A DNA stretch of 63,847 nucleotides, the filler included, from Rhabdomonas costata (Eukaryota), in NCBI GenBank assembly GCA_019059605.1. It is 39 parts of 39 records of this genome, joined end to end, with 100 filler letters (N's around TTAATTAATTAA, not from the genome) between each part and the next. Parts side by side here need not be neighbours in the genome. Positions count along the whole stretch, not along the records: positions 16,416 to 17,955 come from JAHMHO010013482.1; positions 18,056 to 19,595 come from JAHMHO010013483.1; 37 more parts are not named here. One strand, given 5' to 3'. Each line of letters starts with the position of its first letter. The first letter of the stretch is position 1. Positions 9,887-50,478 of this stretch are shown in pieces. The position numbers were made by a program, and so were the translations under genes. The notes under the pieces are model-generated. The model searched no databases. It saw nothing but the letters and a program-made list of their open reading frames with translations, and was not told the DNA's origin.

Positions 9887-11388
9887 ATCTCAACCATTAG
9901 CAGCATCAGGTCAGGGAAACTGATCCACCACGTCCTTTGCGTGTCCAGCGCGGACCAGAGCTTCTGGAAGGCCTCCAGGCACTTTCCACGGGCCTTTATC
10001 TGCCGCTGCTCGGTGAGGGTTGTCATGAACGACTGGATGATGATAGCCGCCAGCATCGGCACAATAATCAGAGAGACGAAGAAGTGGAGTCCAAAGGCGA
10101 ACACGGGGGCCCAGGCGTGCCCGCAATTGCCGAGGCTCGGGTCGCACCTCGGAGGCCCGTCCATCATCATGTCTCGCATGATGCCTGGCCTAAAGCAACA
10201 CGCAATGCTTGTTGGTTGGTAATGAGTACGATGGTCTGCGGAAAAATTCTTTTTATTTTGCCTTTCCAAACTAAGGAAACGTGAAGGACACTCGAACGGC
10301 GGGCCTTCCCGAATTGGAAGGCAACTAAGTGTACTTAAAACCTGTGGAACCAACACTATTTCGCAGAGGAGAGAAGGTGGGAAAATCAAAGCCTCCGTTT
10401 TTCGGTGCCCCCTCCCCCAATATCCAGGTTGGATAGTGATCACTATCCAACTACAGTTCGTTTAAAAGGACCGTCCAAAGGGTCGGGAAGGGGTCTGCAT
10501 CGGGTTGAAACACACGCCCTTTTTTCCCGCCCTTTCCCCGTTCACTGGATTTCAGTAGAAGACTTGGGTGTTAGAGGGCGACGTGCGCTCCTTGGAACAG
10601 CGTCCAGGATGTCTTGGGACGCGGAGCATAGCGGACCTCCGTGCCTCAGAAAGGCGATGAAAGGTTCCCCAGAGATTGCAACACAAAACACAAAAGAAAA
10701 TGAATTATTGTAGGTGCGAAGACCAGTCGCCGCCGCGGCCAAAGAAAGGGAAGGCACACAATCGGGGCATGCCCGTACAAACGAAGTGCCAGTTTCCACC
10801 GCGGAGATTAAACCAAAATCAAAGCGGTACTAAGGGATCTAAATCGAGGGTCTCTTCCATCATTACCGATAGTGCTTTCCAAAGAACTATTCAAGTTCGC
10901 TGAAAACTGCAACGCCGACTGAGTCAAAGCAAAAGGCAAAAGGCAGCGAACCAATTCTCTCCTGTGCTCATCACATAGCAGAGCAGTAGAGATGTCGGGA
11001 AATTCTCAAAATTGATGTGCTCCGTGAAGCTGTCCGTCCCAGCAGCATTCATGTTACCAAAGTAAAACATTGCCACAACCGCGAACATGCACAGCACCAC
11101 GAGCATCAGCACGAGAGTATTGAAGATCTGGGTCACAGCGGTTACCACGGCATGACACAGAGCAAGCACCCCGGTCAAGAAGGGAAGAGCTCTGAGGAGC
11201 CGTAGCACACGAAAGAAGGCAAACACGGAGCTCTGAAACGGGAATCCGGGGCCGCGGCCGTACGCGCAAAGGCACTGCTCGGCGATTCCAGAGACCACAA
11301 CGGAAAACGAAAGGAAGTTCCAGCGGTCTCTCCAGTACCCTTTCCACCCCATTCCAACAAAGATGGTCACCATCTCTAGAGTGTACAA
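9887..11388 (-). CDS. Four-domain voltage-gated cation (Cav-like) channel, repeat IV plus start of EF-hand tail (exons 10952-11388, about 9887-10189)
   Basis: GYWRDRWN (S2-S3), FRVLRLLR (S4), NFENFPTSLLLCYVMSTGENWPGIM (pore, Glu filter), NCG..S6 MLAAIIIQSF, LEAFQKLWSALD. Confidence 0.9.
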
Positions 11389-11983
11389 AAAAAANNNNNN
11401 NNNNNNNNNNNNNNNNNNNNNNNNNNNNNNNNNNNNNNTTAATTAATTAANNNNNNNNNNNNNNNNNNNNNNNNNNNNNNNNNNNNNNNNNNNNGTGGGT
11501 GTGGCACCAGTGCCCTGGACAACGAGGCCGAGCTGGAAGTCGTCACGGTATGGCGATTCTTCCCTGGGAGTGTCCAACTGTTTTCCTTGTTGCTGGTGGG
11601 TGAAAGGCGCCTGTTTTTGTCCTGTAGTCTGTTGTGTTTTGATATTGGGTGTCACTGCGGGAGTTTTTGGAGAGCAGGACCAAGACCAGGAGACCAGGAC
11701 AGCATTGCTGTGGGTTGTGCGCAATTTCGGTTCCTTGTGTTGGGCCTCTGGTTCCTCTGAGTTCCAGACACACGCAGTGATCACTGTGTACCATGAAATG
11801 GGGTGCGTTGAGGTAATGACGTCTGGTGAGAAGACTCCTACGTACTGCCAGCGCAGGGACACAGACACCTTTTGATACGCTGAACACCCTGTGCATTACA
11901 GTTAGTCATCCATTTTTGCTGGCTGAACCATCCGTTTCTCTTGGGACGCAAGCGCCCCGTCCAATGGCTTCTTTGCTGTGTAG

Positions 11984-16415: not shown

Positions 16416-17396
16416 TTTTTTGAAAAAATCAACAAGATTTTCTTTAAAATAATAGTGAAGTTTCCAAATTTGTACTTCAAATAATCGTATGTATATAACA
16501 AAAATAATAAAATTAATAAAAAATTTAATTACAGGTTCCGTAAAATCCGTAATCTTTATCTCCAAGAAATGATGAACCCAATACTCTAATTTTTGTGTAT
16601 TGTACAGTTGTAATTTATTTGATTTTAGTATTGTAACTAAATATGGAATATCATATACATCATCAACATATCGTTCCAAATTGTTACAATAATCTACTAC
16701 TTTTGTATGATCTTCTTCTGTAATTGTAATTGGAGATTCAAATTTTTCAATAACATTAATTTCTATATCATGTTGCAAAATAATATTCTCTTCTTTATGA
16801 ATAATTACAAGATCAATGATCTCGTTGTCATCAACTAAAATTAATATTTTAACAAGTTCATTTTTATTGTCAATGAAATTAATTTTCATTTTATCATCAA
16901 TAATAGAAGTGTCAATAATAAATTCATTGAGACCATTCTTAAGTTCTGTCTGATAAAATTTTTGTGAAAAGAATATTTCATCAATTTGTTTATGTTTATT
17001 TACAATGAATTCATATGGTTTTCCTTTTTTGAAAAATTGTAATACATCATACATAATCAATTGAAAACCGACGTAATCATTATATGTAACATCTTCTTTT
17101 TTTTCAACATCATATTTACAGAATTTGTATTGTGTATTGTAATGAACACATGTACAATTATAAACAGATGTAATTTTCTCTGGATACATATAAAATTCGT
17201 ATATTGGTGATGTAAGTTCAAGAAAAGAATCTTGAAACATCTTAATGACAGATGGAATCGGTTTTGTTAAACAATCCTGAATAAGATGTATATCCTTTTC
17301 AAATTCCTGTTTGTTTTGACAAATGAATTCAATTGTTTCTTTGTACAACGAAGAATTATAATAAGATTCATTCTCATTCACAATTTGAATCGCCAT
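16416..17396 (-). CDS. Hypothetical protein, intronless AT-rich ORF (3'-truncated), giant-virus-like
   Basis: More than 320 open codons in very AT-rich DNA; rich in I/K/N/Y/E; AAAATTGA upstream. Confidence 0.85.
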
Positions 17397-17454
17397 TGTT
17401 TATTTTATATTTTTGAAGTTTTTAATTATATATTTACTGTAATATAAATAAAAT

Positions 17455-17462
17455 TCAATTTT
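17455..17462 (-). promoter_or_regulatory. Mimiviridae-type early promoter AAAATTGA
   Basis: Exact octamer on the coding strand, about 59 nt upstream of the ATG at 17396, in a 65-bp intergenic gap. Confidence 0.65.
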
Positions 17463-17941
17463 TATTGTAATGCTTTTGATATTGTTTTTACTATTTTATT
17501 TATGGCCGGTTTATCTTTTTTATTAAATATACTAATCGAAAACATAATACATTCATATAACATTTGACCAATACTTGAACATGTCCAATGTATTATACCT
17601 ACATCTTCATATGCAGTGATCATACATTCATATACTATTTTTGGTATGAACGTTGAAACCCAACTTACAGTTTTGTCATTTTGCATATATATTTTTTTCC
17701 TATACCATATTTTATTTATATTTTCATCAATTACACGTCCATTTATTCTCTTTTTTATCGTAAAATTGTATTTTCTAAAAATATCATTAAGTTCAATATC
17801 ATCATTATTACTTATTTTTATAATTTCTATATCATCTTCATATTGAAGAACATAATATCTATAATTTTCTTTGTCATTAATATCTTTTATGTTAAGTATA
17901 TCACGTTTTCTAAAAATTTTATTTGATTGTATGTTTATCAT
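17462..17941 (-). CDS. Hypothetical protein (159 aa), intronless AT-rich ORF, giant-virus-like
   Basis: Complete ATG-TAA ORF in tandem with the next ORF; no Shine-Dalgarno sequence seen. Confidence 0.8.
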   Translation of the reverse strand: MINIQSNKIFRKRDILNIKDINDKENYRYYVLQYEDDIEIIKISNNDDIELNDIFRKYNFTIKKRINGRVIDENINKIWYRKKIYMQNDKTVSWVSTFIPKIVYECMITAYEDVGIIHWTCSSIGQMLYECIMFSISIFNKKDKPAINKIVKTISKALQ

Positions 17942-18387
17942 TTATAATATATATANNNNNNNNNNNNNNNNNNNNNNNNNNNNNNNNNNNNNNNNNNNNT
18001 TAATTAATTAANNNNNNNNNNNNNNNNNNNNNNNNNNNNNNNNNNNNNNNNNNNNGGTTGGGTGGGCGCAGAGAGAAAAGGAAAGGCTTGCGAGTGGAAG
18101 TTAGGCGTTACTGTGCGGAGAGGATTGGTTGAGACAAATTTGGGATTCACGTTAAACTTGGGCTTCGACACACACAAGAAGCAGGGCAGAGTCAGGCGGA
18201 AACGGTGTCACTTGATACCGGGCGATTCATAAAAGTGAGCCACTAAAGACAGCCGTATGCTACGAAGGGCTGTCTGAAAGCCTGTAAGTTGTAATACCAC
18301 TCTGAGCAAGTGGGATTGGGGGTCGATGTTCTTTTGACCCTGTTGACTCAATATCCGTCCACCCAACAACACTCACCAACCCCACAC

Positions 18388-36429: not shown

Positions 36430-37171
36430 ATCGCCTTCCCGAGCGCCATACAAGCGGTGTGCTGCTGCACCAGCATCCAGCAACAGCTTCTTCTGTTGGA
36501 CTGGCCGGAGGCCATTCTCAACACAGAGTCGGGCACTGCTGTATTTACCGATGACCACACGCTGTTGTGGAGAGGTACGTGTTGTCATATGAGAAACAAA
36601 GTCACACACACAGACACACTTCTTGCCGTTTTGCTTTTTGAACCTGGGTTCTGTACGGCCATTTTCGATGTCGGGAGATTTTCCCCCAGAATGGATTTCT
36701 GGCCAGAGATTTAGCATCGGTTGCGGGGATTGAGTTTTTGCGGTTTCGGATGACGTGTCCCTTCCGTGATTTTGTTTCAGAGAATATCCTTGAATTGGCT
36801 CGTCTCGCAGTTTGACTCCCCTTCGCCTGATCATATCCTGCCGTGTGCGTCGGCTTTGGTGCCGAGGGGGCATCGCGGGTTGATCCGCGATAAAGGAAGC
36901 AGGACTCCTTCGCCAGCTCCATGGCTTGTTGGGGTGTCTTGCAGGGCTGCGGGTCCGAATGGGGTTGCAAATCGGGGAGCCCGAGGTGGTGGTTGACTTC
37001 GCCACCCGCAGAGTGGACTATCTGGGCCACGTGGTGAACCAGGCCGCCCGAGTGGAGTCCAAGGCCCATGGCGGAGAGATCTGCTTGACCAAGGACGTCA
37101 TGGAGGTCATCCGTCACGCACCCCAGTTCGACGACTGGGTCATCGACTTCATCGGTGAGCACTCCTTTAAG
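36430..37171 (+). CDS. Class III adenylate cyclase catalytic domain (exons 36430-36574, 36945-37171)
   Basis: IAF...IQQQLL..DWPEAIL...LLWRGLRVRMG...DYLGHVVNQAARVESKAHGGEI. Confidence 0.92.
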
Positions 37172-37408
37172 GTCTGCTGTGGCCGCCCAACGCGCTGCGC
37201 TCCGTTTCGCTTCACTTTTCTTTAAACAGTGCTTCGGAGTGGGTCGCCATTGCCGGCATCCAGCATCTGGTCTGCAACACTCAGTCGATCCTCTTGTTCT
37301 TTATCGCCACTACTATGCCGTCGACACTAATTGAAAATAACAATGGTCGATCCTTATTCGCTGAATTGTAGTCCATGTTTTGATCATGACCGCGGGGGTT
37401 CGGAGTGA

Positions 37409-44282: not shown

Positions 44283-45821
44283 CACAGTCATCTCCGCCGC
44301 GTACGATGGAGCACTGTCTAAAGCCGCGTCGGTGCTGATCTCTGCGCAGCCTCCTTTGGCTGATCCCAAAGAAGCTGAGCCTGCCCTACGTGCTCTCCAC
44401 CCCTCAAGACCGGAGTCGGCCTATACCCGAGCCGTCTGCAATGTACTCCTCTGGTGATCATCTGGATTGTGAATTCGAACCGGCTGAAATCTTGAAAGCC
44501 GCACGCTCTTTCCCACCAGGCTCCACGGGGGGCCCCTCGGGATTGCGTCCGTCCCACATTGCAGAGGCGCTTAAGACGGACGATTCGGGTGAACTTGCAC
44601 AAGCTCTTGCCTCGTTGGCGACAGATCTTATCAATGGCCGTTTGCCAGAGGCGGCACGAGGGTGGTTTTGCGGGGCACGCTTAATCGGAATTCCCAAAAA
44701 GCCGAGTGGTGTCCGACCGATAGCAGTCGGCGAGACCCTTCGTCGCCTCTCAGCGAAGTGCCTTGTAGCACAAGCTCAGGGGTCCGCTGCAGAAGCTCTA
44801 CGTCCACAGCAGATGGGGGTGGATGTGCCTCAGGCAGCAGAAGTCCTCGCGCACGGAATCAGAGCTTGGGCACAGTCTGCTCGCGCTGATGAAGTTGCGC
44901 TGTTTGTGGATTTTTCTAATGCCTACAACTCCCTCGACCGCCAGCGCATGTTGGACGCAATCGCGACCTTTGCGCCACGCTTCTGGAAGTATGCATGGTA
45001 CTGCTACGGGGCCCCCTGCCCACTGATAGGTCGAGGCTTCACGCTTGAGTCTTCGGAAGGCACGCAGCAGGGAGATGTATGTGGCCCTCTTTTCTTCGCA
45101 CTCACACTCAAGCTGCTTCTTGATAAGCACCTCAAGGATAGCCCCACAGGCTGGTCTCGATGGTACTTGGACGACGGCACCCTGTGCGGCCACCGGGACA
45201 CTGTGGCAGCCATGTTCCGAGCCATTTGCGAGCATGCACCTGAAATTGGGTTGCATGTGAATCCTGCCAAGTGCAAGGTGTGGGGCCCTCACGCTGTGGC
45301 TGCCGATTGGCCGGTCCCTGTGGTTCCCTGGGACTCTGGGGTCAACGTGCTGGGCATTCCTGTGGGTTCTCGTGCATTTGTAGCAGGCGAGTGCGCTTCA
45401 GTGGTTTCTAAACTGTCCGAAGCGCTGAGACGGCTTCCACTGCTCGCGGATTCGTTTGTGGCATTTCATTTGCTCCGTAGCTGCCTGTCTGCCTGCCGTG
45501 TGACCCATCTTCTTCGAGCCCTTTCGTTCGACAGTGGAGCCTCTCTGGCAGACCAGGCGAGGCGGGCCATCAAAGATGCCCTGAATGGCGTGGTCGGGGC
45601 ACCTCTGTCGGAACAGCAGTGGGCACTCGCCAGTCTTCCTACCCGCTTGGGTGGCCTGGGCGTATTGGACCCTTCTTCTGTGCAGCCGGCTGCGCATCTT
45701 TCCTCTTTCCTGTCGACGTCGTTGGAGGCAATCACATTCCGCCTTCCTCAGCTGGACGTCAGTCACGGTCAGTTAATAGCCCTTGCTCAGTTGACACCTT
45801 CGGCACGCGCGTGGACCGAAG
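44283..45821 (+). mobile_element. Non-LTR retrotransposon, CRE/SLACS/Cnl1-like reverse transcriptase (internal fragment, one frameshift)
   Basis: GPSGLRPSHI, GARLIGIPKK..GVRPIAVGE.LRRL, DFSNAYNSLDR, GTQQGDVCGPLFF, WYLDDG, LGIPVGS, ASLPTRLGGLG; intronless. Confidence 0.92.
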
Positions 45822-47722: not shown

Positions 47723-48694
47723 CTGGGAGGCCAGCAGGCCCACAAAGAGCCCCACCCCAGCCAAGGAGTGGGAGGTGGAAGCGGAGGCGGCGCCGTGGTG
47801 CACGGCCAGGCTCGCAAGGATGCCCGCGGCCAGCCCCACTGCCACCCCAACGGCGCGCAGGGAGATCCACTTCTTCACCGGTGGGGGGCGGTGCTGGAAG
47901 TGCAGCAGGCCCTCATAGAAGTTGCTCACCGCAAACACCGCGTCGCACGGCCATCGGTGGGGGTGCCGCAGGTCCTCAGCACAGACCTTTTCGGGGTTGG
48001 GCCAAAGAAAGAAGACAATACTGTTGGCGTGACTGTATGGGATCAGGTTATGCCAATTCAGGGCAATGCCAAATGCCAAATCAATGCCAAAAGCTCACAC
48101 AAGTCCAGTCATTCCCCCAAAAAACTCATTACAAACCGGTGCGAGGAATGCCAAAACTGCAATAGCATGAAGGGTGAACCGGGGGAGGGGACTTTCTTGA
48201 GAGGTCTCGACCGTCTCTGTAAGCTGATGTTGCGGATGAAACTTTTGCAGCGGAACTCATGCGGTAGAAATGGAGGTGGAGGCGTGGAGACGTGCAGATT
48301 TCGTTTCCTAGTTTTATGAGCAACCACCCGCCCCCAACATACGTGATTGCGGATGCTGTACCACTGCACATCCTGGTAGGGCTCGACGAACAGATCCCTC
48401 CGCAGCTCGCTCACCAAAGGGGTCAGCGGGGCCTGGTATCGGGACCCCGAGAGCAGGCTCATGGGGAGGTACACCGTGCGGGCGTAGGACCACATCCGGG
48501 AGGGGTGAAAGGGCAGCCACCGCGGCAGCAGCCAGGACTCCACCAGGAGGGAGTTGAAGGCCTCCCACTGGAACACCCCCAGCACAGCGAGCCAAAACTT
48601 CCCCCACTGGGGAATCCCCACCACTCCCCCGCGGCTGCGGATCCAGTTCCGCGCCAGAACGGCCGCGGGGTGGCCGTGGGGAAGACCCATGATG
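47723..48694 (-). CDS. Oxidosqualene cyclase family protein (exons 48343-48694, about 47723-47986)
   Basis: ARNWIRSRGG...IPQWGKFWLAVLGVFQW...WLLPRWLPFHPSRMWSYARTVYLPMS...LRRDLFVEPY...W...RNHVCAEDL.HPH. Confidence 0.93.
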
Positions 48695-50478
48695 CTGCGC
48701 ACGAACAAAAAGGTCTACTAAACCCTTTGTCGCAACCGTCGTTTTTTGAGTCAGCACCTCACCGCATCCTAATTAACGCGAGAAAATACATGTACAATAG
48801 AAATGGTTACGCGTGGTTACCCTCCCCTGAGCTCGTCCAGAACTCCTTGGAACTGGAAGTGACCATGTCAGTGGAGAATCGGCCCGAGTCCCGCCCATTT
48901 CCACCCTTTGGAACCTGCACACCGTGATGTGCTCGGTATCGCTTGACGCGTTTCCTAACTTCTCAGCCCAGAACCCCCGAGGCGCATCACTGTATTGCAG
49001 AAGAACAGGTATAATGTTCGTGGATAAATTAAAAACAGGCTTGTGTCGACGAGGTATGCATTCTTGGACACAAGCCTGTTTTTAATTTACCCACAAACCN
49101 NNNNNNNNNNNNNNNNNNNNNNNNNNNNNNNNNNNNNNNNNNNTTAATTAATTAANNNNNNNNNNNNNNNNNNNNNNNNNNNNNNNNNNNNNNNNNNNNG
49201 TGCCCTTGCTGAATTCATTTCCCTTTTCCCAATTACCTTTTTCGCACATACGTTTCAGTCAAATCAAACCCCATTTACAACCGAAACACAGCTCAAAGCA
49301 CAAAAAAGGCATTGGGTGAAACAATAAAACCTGCGCTCGCGTAGGACCTGAGAACAGCCATGGCTCGGTAGCTCACGGATCCAAACAGCAAAAGTTGCAG
49401 GGAAACAGAAAAAGCAACCTGTGCGTCCAGAAAACTGCTAAAGGCAGAGTGAAGCCAAAAAGGGGTGAGGGTGGAATGAAAAAACCTCTTAGGTAAACTT
49501 CACACCGAGTCCCACAAATGCATTGAAGAAAACCAAGTACATTTAGCTCAAGACAGCAGGAAAATGGCCCGCATCACACGATAACTGCATTGAAAAGCAC
49601 CAACGCACCGTCAGGTGTCGGTAATTTCAGCCCAGAACAAAAGCCCATTCCAATGCAAACAACCACAGGTTCCCAGCATCAAGTTTTGATTTCTCGGAAA
49701 TCTTGATGAAGAACAGCTAGGATGAGGAAAACGCTGGGTGAACGGTGAAATACAGCACCCGTAAAGCCTGGTCAATACAAAATCATTCAAGGGCAATATA
49801 GACAGCAAGACGAAAAGTACAGCAAGGGACCCGAAACACACGAAAACAACAAGAAAACACCATCCATTCTGGACGGTGATTTTCCGGCACAAAGGCACCA
49901 ACGAAAAACGGACGGGCATGTAAGCAGGAAAGTCAATGCCCGGGGGAGGACCTGCAGCGTTTCGGTGTCCGGGAGGTCCTTTTGGGTGAAGGGTCTGAAA
50001 TCCGACAACCTGAGCAAGCGATTTTATCATGAAATTACAAGTAGAATCTGCAGCAGGTTGGTTGCGCAGGCTGAGAAGTACCAATGGATGCGAGCGACAC
50101 CACGGGTGCGGGCAGTCTTTGCACCAGCGTTGTGTCATATATCCCACTCCAGGCACTCCACGCAACGCCCAATGCGCTTCTAATTTCCATGGGCCATAAA
50201 ACGATGAGTCAGCGATATGCCATCAACTCTCGCCGGACATTGGGGCATCACCGGTCAGTCTCATCAAGAGTCGGTTTTTCTTCCTGAGAGTACGATGGTC
50301 ATTCTCAGGCAGAAGCAAAAGAGCAAAAGAACGACTTCCAAAAGGCTTCAGCTGAAAATAAAACAGCCGAAAATGAAACGGACGTTTGGGAAACAGGTGA
50401 CATCTAACGGCGGCTGAGAGCGGCACACAGCATAGCACCCACCGAACCTCGCGCAGGAAAAGCCAACACAGAACCAAC

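Follow-up and report, generated by a model that had tools for sequence, protein, structure and literature searches.

The AT-rich contig at positions 16416..17955 is probably a genome fragment of an AT-rich nucleocytoplasmic large DNA virus (NCLDV, giant virus) that carries two lineage-specific orphan genes. The most likely kind of giant virus is an Imitervirales/Mimiviridae-like one, but the contig cannot be placed in an order. An NCLDV fragment had already been proposed in a sequence-only reading of the same DNA. Composition, compact genes, the standard genetic code and the context of a promoter motif speak for this proposal, but neither a hallmark gene nor a protein relative was found to back it.

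The window, i.e., the whole stretch of 63,847 nt that was analysed, consists of 39 contigs of ~1540 bp that are separated by N/TTAATTAATTAA spacers. The features of the AT-rich contig are listed in Table 1. As stated in the earlier reading, it is the most AT-rich contig of the window, with a GC content of 22.2% compared to 47.0-58.8% in the other 38 contigs. A host-like end was sought on the contig in 200-nt windows and none was found, the GC content being 20.5-27.5% throughout. These values support that the contig is foreign in composition to the rest of the window, where eukaryotic fragments are found on other contigs (RVT_1, Ion_trans, SQHop_cyclase_N, PQ-loop, Guanylate_cyc). The difference in GC content is of the kind reported for Bodo saltans virus (BsV), with 25.3% GC versus ~50% in Bodo (PMC5871332), and is one reason for the giant-virus reading. 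Neither a tRNA nor an Rfam match is present on the AT-rich contig. Kinetoplastid and diplonemid mitochondria use a code in which TGA specifies tryptophan. In the two ORFs of the contig, tryptophan is encoded by TGG in five of five codons and the number of in-frame TGA codons is 0. This standard code rules out a TGA=Trp source, be it an organelle such as a kinetoplastid/diplonemid mitochondrion or a Mycoplasma-like mollicute.

Table 1 Features of the AT-rich contig, with positions counted along the window
Feature	Position	Strand	Description
AT-rich contig	16416..17955	.	1540 bp, 22.2% GC; assembly spacers on both sides, without host-like flank
ORF1 upstream 14 nt + ATG	17939..17955	-	TATATA repeats, TAAATG; contig edge
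ORF1 (protein P0002)	17462..17941	-	complete, 159 aa, TAA stop, orphan by the searches run
Early-promoter-like core	17448..17463	-	16-mer AAAAATTGAATTTTAT, ends 51 nt before ORF2 ATG
Intergenic spacer	17397..17461	-	65 nt; sense strand 57% A, 3% G
ORF2 (protein P0001)	16416..17396	-	≥327 aa, 3' end cut by contig end, orphan by the searches run
ORF2 C-terminal part, aa 287-326	16419..16538	-	predicted single long helix with hydrophobic stretch

ORF1 and ORF2 are genuine genes. Stop codons account for 219 of the 3077 codons across the six frames of the contig, so that the 327-codon open frame of ORF2 is not due to chance, and the GC content of the two ORFs is 14-18% at third codon positions (GC3) versus 29-38% at first positions (GC1). 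The arrangement described from the sequence alone, two tandem intronless ORFs 65 nt apart without Shine-Dalgarno sequence, was recovered with both ORFs on the minus strand and the spacer at 17461..17397. An in-frame TAA is located immediately 5' of the ORF1 ATG. G is absent from the 18 nt 5' of the ORF2 ATG and from the 14 nt 5' of the ORF1 ATG, hence no Shine-Dalgarno sequence precedes either ORF. The spacer contains neither a sigma-70-type promoter nor an intrinsic terminator, and sigma-70-like sites are not enriched on the contig (18 vs. 18.8 in shuffles; 0 in the spacer). Tandem intronless genes, an A-rich spacer, the missing Shine-Dalgarno sequence and the standard code together argue for a giant virus. 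The region 3' of ORF1 may argue against it, as no significant hairpin follows the gene: the best RNA fold has -5.7 kcal/mol (z = -1.44, not significant), and the 11-bp perfect inverted repeat that spans the ORF1 stop is equalled in 23% of simulations. This would be a difference from Mimiviridae, since the ORFs of BsV and Mimivirus are reportedly followed by palindromes (PMC5871332).

The exact octamer that had been noted about 59 nt before the downstream ATG is present. The 8-mer AAAATTGA is located at 17462..17455 on the minus strand, with 58 nt between it and the ORF2 ATG, and lies within the 9-mer AAAAATTGA at 17463..17455; the final two bases of the ORF1 stop are part of this 9-mer. The accompanying caution that the octamer may arise by chance in AT-rich DNA was justified for the contig as a whole: a first-order Markov model (Markov-1) expects 0.95 copies over both strands, and at least one copy occurs in 62% of simulations. 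On the sense strand, the 8-mer is found ≤70 nt before a start in 2.9-3.3% of simulations and ≤100 nt before a start in 4.3-4.6%; for the 9-mer, the ≤70 nt value is 1.2-1.6%. Three bacterial plasmids, AT-rich at 27% GC, together contain 96 ORFs, and the 8-mer is present ≤100 nt upstream of 3 of these. The chance of the 8-mer in such an upstream region is about 3-5%. The exact 9-mer in the sole testable upstream region, at the chance given above, favors a giant virus. That this region is the only complete one on the contig (n = 1), with the case resting on one motif occurrence, counts against. Neither of the late motifs TGCG and TCTA occurs upstream of the two ORFs, which is another difference from Mimiviridae; TGCG occurs nowhere on the sense strand and TCTA once, within ORF2. 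The megamimivirus late-motif pattern (PMC11464507) has no sense-strand match at ≤1 mismatch.

IMG/VR, which holds viruses only, was scanned with the 16-mer of the contig and with two composition-matched 16-mers of the same contig as controls. Among the matches listed, the target 16-mer is in promoter position in 35 of 121 cases, compared to 8/118 and 7/119 for the controls. For loci with <30% GC, the corresponding counts among the matches listed are 22/38 for the target and 2/50 and 0/41 for the controls (2/91 together). Fourteen of these 22 AT-rich loci listed are in GVMAG-named contigs; of the other eight, at least five have giant-virus genes or come from contigs >1 Mb, and three are without assignment. 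Judged by contig names, gene content and length, at least 19 of the 22 loci listed with the 16-mer in promoter position can thus be classed as giant-virus contigs. Phage hallmarks were found in none of the 22 (eight Pfam-scanned, 14 taken as giant-virus from their GVMAG names). The GVMAG-named share among the matches listed is 24/119 for the 16-mer and 16/118 for control 1, which is no clear excess. The 16-mer differs from the controls in where its matches are placed and not in the type of contig they come from. Its placement as a promoter in the AT-rich IMG/VR loci listed, unlike the controls, supports the giant-virus reading.

In 39 GVMAG-named loci, the 8-mer is found upstream of 79 of 325 ORFs, a count somewhat inflated because the loci were picked by the 16-mer itself, versus 20/325 for the antisense motif. 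The consensus AAAAAATTGAATTTTT was obtained from 64 independent sites of the motif in GVMAG loci, and the flanks of the contig's motif score +2.7 bits against it. The distance between motif and ATG in these loci has a median of 41 nt (quartiles 34-51) and is ≥58 nt in 16% of cases. The 58 nt of the contig are inside this range but in its upper tail, which is a point against the giant-virus reading; that the flanks and the distance nevertheless fit the 64 sites is a point in its favor. These comparisons support a likeness of motif flanks and spacing to giant-virus MAG loci. IMG/VR also contains giant-virus MAG contigs (e.g., L042, L075 and L019) with the identical 16-mer 13-59 nt before an ATG; these loci have 17-30% GC and contain several further ORFs with AAAATTGA upstream. 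They differ from the contig in their ORFs, which are without similarity to P0001 or P0002 (best E 0.21 in a tblastn search of both proteins against 236 IMG/VR loci).

None of the searches run gave a relative for either protein, and both are orphans by sequence comparison. With phmmer, P0001 had 0 matches among 1.84 billion representatives; beyond the family libraries, the large-scale searches of P0002 were word-based. A word-based search of 5.8 billion proteins, covering near lengths for both proteins and longer lengths for P0002, found no relative. Nothing significant was obtained for P0001 and P0002 from Pfam, PHROGs (best E 0.035), NCBIfam, PDB sequences and the ESM Atlas, nor from IMG/VR, JGI metagenomes and GTDB genome contigs. 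Tblastn of both proteins against phage records gave no significant match, and blastn of the contig against phages (50,697 records) and plasmids (72,556) gave no match. That neither ORF is a recognisable hallmark gene, as the earlier reading had stated, was borne out: no Pfam family was matched above the cut-off in the HMM search of both proteins. MCP, PolB, A32 ATPase, VLTF3 and D5 are absent from the contig in the Pfam search of both ORFs, and the other 38 contigs of the window, with 146 ORFs of ≥110 aa, likewise show no viral hallmark. The absence of a hallmark gene and of relatives, including those among giant-virus MAG proteins and in IMG/VR, argues against the giant-virus reading. Orphan genes are frequent in such viruses, with 40% ORFans reported for BsV (PMC5871332), which argues for it. 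Two candidate assignments were rejected, namely DcpS_C/HIT for P0002 (E 0.016, 16 bits vs. a cut-off of 24, no histidine triad) and paralogy of P0001 and P0002 (best E 0.093). AlphaFold single-sequence models have a mean pLDDT of 39 and, for ORF2, 34, which is too poor for a fold search. In either model, pLDDT exceeds 55 only at the C-terminus of ORF2 (aa 287-326; end blocks 57-71).

Among known systems, BsV and other Klosneuvirinae/Mimiviridae (Imitervirales), including CroV and ChlorV, resemble the contig in their reported GC content of ~25% versus ~50% in the host (PMC5871332). What the sequence-only reading had said about BsV agrees with the literature. For the Klosneuvirinae/Mimiviridae, the likeness extends to dense intronless genes, many ORFans and the early motif, which is given as AAAAATTGA for BsV (PMC5871332, PMC13196603); the difference is that their proteins have no similarity to the products of the contig. 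The octamer had been called the early promoter of Mimiviridae. This holds insofar as the motif is reported upstream of 45% of Mimivirus genes (PMC5294985), but it is not exclusive to this family: AAAATTGA is reported before 44% of pacmanvirus genes and also in ASFV and some iridoviruses (PMC11788076). As the motif is common to Mimiviridae and pacmanvirus/ASFV and occurs in related form in poxviruses, no family can be assigned to the contig by it. Pacmanvirus and the extended Asfarviridae share the early AAAATTGA with the contig, and their reported late motif TATATA (PMC11788076) precedes ORF1. A further likeness to pacmanvirus is the description of small accessory DNAs (transpoviron, 2-kb episome) with orphan genes behind the early motif (PMC11788076). 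In contrast to these likenesses, no sequence similarity to pacmanvirus was found, and TATATA is expected by chance at 22% GC.

The contig could instead belong to an AT-rich eukaryotic compartment or contaminant, with the motif as a chance match. It might come from a nucleomorph, from a mitochondrion or plastid with the standard code (or a plasmid thereof), or from a very compact AT-rich eukaryote taken up as food or sorted together with the cell. A GC content of ~22-28% and a very compact layout with many fast-evolving orphan ORFs are features of nucleomorphs and some organelle genomes. A contig of such GC content with orphan ORFs would fit, the lack of relatives would be expected, the other 38 contigs carry eukaryotic fragments, and a single motif occurrence has the chance of a few percent estimated above. 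Nevertheless, this origin is unlikely, because TGA=Trp organelles are ruled out by the tryptophan codons and because a 1.5-kb organelle piece with orphan genes only, no tRNA and no Rfam match would be unusual. In addition, the motif has matching flanks and spacing, and in giant-virus contigs rich in AT the 16-mer, unlike the controls, is positioned like a promoter element.

Less probable still as a source is a bacterium of high AT content, present as symbiont, prey or contaminant, or its phage or plasmid. AT-rich symbionts occur in protists and would fit the composition, tandem orphan genes with short spacers are typical of phages, and the motif holds a -35-like TTGA behind an A-tract. These points are opposed by the missing Shine-Dalgarno sequence, with no G before either ATG, by a spacer without sigma-70-type promoter or terminator, and by the empty searches of NCBIfam, PHROGs, the phage and plasmid records and the GTDB species genomes. 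The listed AT-rich IMG/VR loci with the 16-mer in promoter position likewise showed no phage hallmark, and 22% GC would be extreme for a free-living bacterium. Very unlikely is a small giant-virus satellite (transpoviron, virophage, polinton-like virus or viral episome) that uses giant-virus promoters. Such elements are small and AT-rich, and transpovirons as well as the 2-kb pacmanvirus episome are reported to consist mostly of orphan genes preceded by AAAATTGA (PMC11788076). Transpovirons typically have terminal or tandem repeats; such repeats were sought on the contig and not found, and its Pfam search gave no virophage or polinton hallmark; 1.5 kb of sequence holds nothing that separates such an element from a fragment of the giant-virus genome itself.

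The viral origin is inferred, and so is the following account of when and how the genes of a giant-virus fragment would be transcribed and what their products would do. ORF2 would be an early-class gene. VETF-like early transcription factors are virus-encoded; such a factor would bind the AAAAATTGA core and recruit the viral RNA polymerase in a cytoplasmic factory. Transcription would start slightly downstream of the core, so that the ORF2 ATG would be preceded by a 5' leader some tens of nt long. ORF1 would have a separate promoter located at the edge of the contig or outside it, where only TATATA...TAAATG is visible. Both proteins would be non-core accessory products, and the predicted C-terminal hydrophobic helix of ORF2 may anchor the protein in a membrane.

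Metagenomes are the only source for most giant viruses, whose hosts are not known, so a giant-virus sequence in the assembly of a single organism can link a host. That the contig represents an unsampled giant-virus lineage that replicates in, or is integrated into, the sequenced protist, and thus a new virus-host pair, is doubtful. If it is true, and if the assembly holds more such contigs with hallmark genes and a matching depth, a lineage missing from the databases would gain a named host. Protist assemblies commonly contain giant-virus DNA, and a 1.5-kb orphan fragment alone, with no gene of readable function, adds little.

Resemblances to poxvirus signals were also observed. TTTTTNT is the poxvirus early terminator. 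It occurs inside ORF2 at 16522 and 16504, ≥88 nt before the earliest possible stop, which argues against early termination of the pox type. TAAATG is a late-promoter element and the form of the poxvirus late initiator, and ORF1 starts with it. The TATATA/TAAATG of ORF1 resembles late-promoter elements of ASFV/pacmanvirus and poxviruses; such strings are common in AT-rich DNA. Poxviruses are not known from protists. The synthetic vaccinia early/late promoter PrS (PMC3741161), a designed consensus and not a natural relative of the contig, is identical to the contig core in the first 10 bases of the latter and, after a one-base gap, in the next 8.

The window consists of 39 contigs of 1538-1553 bp each, arranged in descending order of length and separated by runs of N around TTAATTAATTAA. 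Since separate contigs are thus joined, neighborhood in the window is uninformative on linkage. The contig at 16416-17955 had been noticed from the sequence as more AT-rich than all others, and indeed has a GC content of 22.2% versus 47.0-58.8% in the other 38. In 200-nt windows, its GC content stays at 20.5-27.5% throughout, so that no junction with host-like DNA is seen on it.

The AT-rich contig carries two tandem ORFs on the minus strand, as previously described, separated by a spacer of 65 nt. ORF1 encodes protein P0002 and ORF2 encodes protein P0001. The ATG of ORF1 directly follows an in-frame TAA. Both ORFs are genuine genes rather than open frames arising by chance, given the stop codon frequency in the six frames (219/3077) and a GC3 (14-18%) far below GC1 (29-38%). 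On the sense strand, A makes up 57% of the spacer and G 3%. The only terminator-like site of the contig, a stem-loop, is located within the coding region of ORF2 (shuffle mean 0.0). Neither a tRNA nor an Rfam family was found in the window.

Features of the window and of one IMG/VR locus (E-values from Pfam)
Feature	Position	Strand	Remarks
ORF1	17941..17462	-	complete, 159 aa, TAA stop
ORF2	17396..16416	-	at least 327 aa, open at contig end
AAAATTGA (8-mer)	17462..17455	-	exact match, 58 nt before ORF2 ATG
16-mer promoter string	17463..17448	-	
TTTTTNT	16522 and 16504		inside ORF2
Stem-loop	16807-16825	-	8 pairs, 3 G-C
AAAATTGA, other copy	11008-11015	+	52% GC contig, opposite Ion_trans open frame
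Ion_trans	10927-11394	-	E 3e-26
Guanylate_cyc	36884-37222	+	E 5.5e-8
PQ-loop	43540-44028	-	E 3e-10
RVT_1, reverse transcriptase domain	44339-45820	+	E 1e-13; 494-aa open frame, nearly whole contig
SQHop_cyclase_N	48112-48714	-	E 6.5e-24
16-mer copies in L019	6242-6257 and 7149-7164	-	each before ORF

That neither ORF is a recognizable hallmark gene was borne out, as searches of Pfam, PHROGs and NCBIfam gave no significant match to P0001 or P0002. The same applies to PDB sequences and the ESM Atlas, to a word-based search of 5.8 billion clusters (longer proteins included for P0002), to IMG/VR, JGI metagenomes and GTDB species genomes, and to tblastn against phage records. An exhaustive phmmer search of 1.84 billion representatives, performed for P0001 alone, gave 0 matches at E ≤0.001, and a blastn comparison of the contig with phages and plasmids gave none. 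The two proteins are not paralogues, and show no likeness to ORFs of 236 IMG/VR loci (best E 0.21). Single-sequence AlphaFold models were unusable (mean pLDDT 39 and 34); in the latter, the ORF2 product is tentatively predicted to have a C-terminal long helix including a hydrophobic stretch.

The exact early-promoter motif AAAATTGA reported ahead of the downstream ATG is present, extends to the 9-mer AAAAATTGA and overlaps the ORF1 stop codon. Excerpts of two papers report this 9-mer form in BsV, CroV and ChlorV (PMC5871332; PMC13196603). The caution that the octamer can arise by chance in AT-rich DNA is justified: a Markov-1 model expects 0.95 copies on the contig over both strands, and 62% of simulations contain at least one, so mere presence at any place or strand is unremarkable. 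With the search confined to the sense strand and the last 70 nt ahead of a start, 2.9-3.3% of simulations contain the 8-mer (4.3-4.6% for 100 nt) and 1.2-1.6% contain the 9-mer. The only other copy of AAAATTGA in the window is a chance match, as the total of two is below the shuffle mean of 3.8.

For calibration, IMG/VR was scanned with the exact 16-mer and with two control 16-mers of the same composition from elsewhere on the contig, yielding at least 119, 118 and 119 loci, respectively, of which positions but not totals are comparable. A promoter position was defined as outside sense ORFs ≥60 aa and no more than 100 nt ahead of a sense ATG-ORF. Among the matches listed, 35/121 were in promoter position for the target versus 8/118 and 7/119 for the controls; the gap was small in loci ≥30% GC (13/83 versus 6/68 and 7/78) and pronounced in loci <30% GC (22/38 versus 2/50 and 0/41; Fisher p ~1e-12 against pooled controls), and in loci named GVMAG, which we take to mean giant-virus MAG, it was 18/25 versus 0/16 for control 1. 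Of the 22 AT-rich promoter-position matches listed, 14 sit in GVMAG-named contigs. A Pfam scan of 66 ORFs from the remaining eight loci revealed the NCLDV major capsid protein (L105), a P8 minor capsid region with DUF5832 (L067), ArgRS and Pox_G9-A16 (L060, a 1.02-Mb contig), HisRS (L118, 1.15 Mb) and a Herpes_ori_bp-type helicase (L047); L100, L023 and L091 were left unassigned, and phage hallmarks were found by Pfam in none of the eight. In 39 GVMAG-named loci, the sense 8-mer lies ≤100 nt upstream of 79/325 ORFs ≥100 aa, a rate somewhat inflated by 25 sites that were themselves the selection criterion, versus 20/325 for the antisense motif. The motif-to-ATG distance in these loci has a median of 41 (quartiles 34-51; ≥58 in 16%), which places the 58-nt spacing within their range, in the upper tail. 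From 64 independent sites, the consensus AAAAAATTGAATTTTT was derived; the flanks of the contig's motif score +2.7 bits against background. The identical 16-mer occurs twice each in L019 and L110, every copy ahead of an ORF; L110 (36% GC, no giant-virus MAG label) has AAAATTGA upstream of 10/14 ORFs.

The common AT-rich giant viruses of protists are Imitervirales-like, which is the sole reason for ranking such a virus as the most likely source. The promoter element itself fits giant viruses in general. Its assignment to Mimiviridae in the sequence-only reading agrees with its place ahead of 45% of Mimivirus genes in a review excerpt (PMC5294985) but is too narrow, as parts of PMC11788076 describe it before 44% of pacmanvirus genes and in ASFV and some iridoviruses. 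Excerpts elsewhere mention about 410 intergenic copies in tupanvirus (tupanvirus paper) and an early motif of pox/mimivirus-like type shared by many metagenomic giant viruses (PMC6401483). The contig core is close to identical with the beginning of PrS, a synthetic early/late promoter of vaccinia (PMC3741161), the alignment showing 10 identical bases, a one-base gap and 8 identical bases. TTTTTNT within ORF2 does not match early termination of the poxvirus type. TATATA lies ahead of ORF1, whose start reads TAAATG, and the contig ends 14 nt upstream; both strings resemble late elements of ASFV/pacmanvirus and poxviruses, yet are frequent in 22%-GC DNA. In part of PMC5871332, ORFs of BsV and Mimivirus are described as being followed by palindromes, whereas no significant hairpin was found 3' of ORF1.

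For orphan-only contigs of 22% GC in a eukaryote assembly that use the standard code and have no Shine-Dalgarno sequence, the prior probability of a giant virus was set at ~1 in 4. With a motif likelihood ratio of ~5-15 (from 24-45% versus 3-5%) and a slight addition from the matching flanks, this gives 75-90% before discount. Owing to the single site, the spacing in the tail, the absent hairpin and controls without nucleomorphs or AT-rich eukaryotes, the value was lowered, and the contig is probably a giant-virus genome fragment. The proposed NCLDV origin keeps the motif and flanks that fit giant-virus loci but lacks a hallmark gene, and the virus-host link also raised in the sequence-only reading is putative at most. 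A satellite element borrowing giant-virus promoters, inseparable from this reading on 1.5 kb, is very improbable; according to an excerpt of PMC11788076, the motif also precedes orphan genes in a transpoviron and in a 2-kb episome.

An AT-rich eukaryotic compartment or contaminant is unlikely. All 5/5 Trp codons of both ORFs are TGG, with no in-frame TGA, whereas TGA is expected to dominate in a 22%-GC genome where it encodes Trp; kinetoplastid and diplonemid mitochondria and mollicutes are therefore excluded, unlike standard-code organelles. As to a bacterium or phage, which we judge quite unlikely, the reported lack of a Shine-Dalgarno sequence was confirmed by the lack of any G near both ATGs, sigma-70-like sites are not enriched (18 versus 18.8 in shuffles; none in the spacer), and no terminator was found between ORF1 and ORF2. 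Three Borreliella plasmids (27% GC, ORFs ≥100 aa), serving purely as an AT-rich cellular control for the chance of the motif, have the 8-mer ≤100 nt upstream of 3/96 ORFs and the antisense motif at 2/96.

In the other 38 contigs, all 146 stop-to-stop ORFs ≥110 aa (20 + 126) were scanned with Pfam, and no viral hallmark genes were found. Matches in 7/146 (those in the table plus weak ones to G6PD_C and Pex24p) are eukaryote-type fragments. The short ORFs and sparse matches suggest a nuclear genome that is intron-bearing or gene-poor, and the short open frames of the Ion_trans, SQHop_cyclase_N, PQ-loop and Guanylate_cyc fragments suggest exons of an intron-bearing one. The RVT_1 frame is a retroelement of the presumed host genome.
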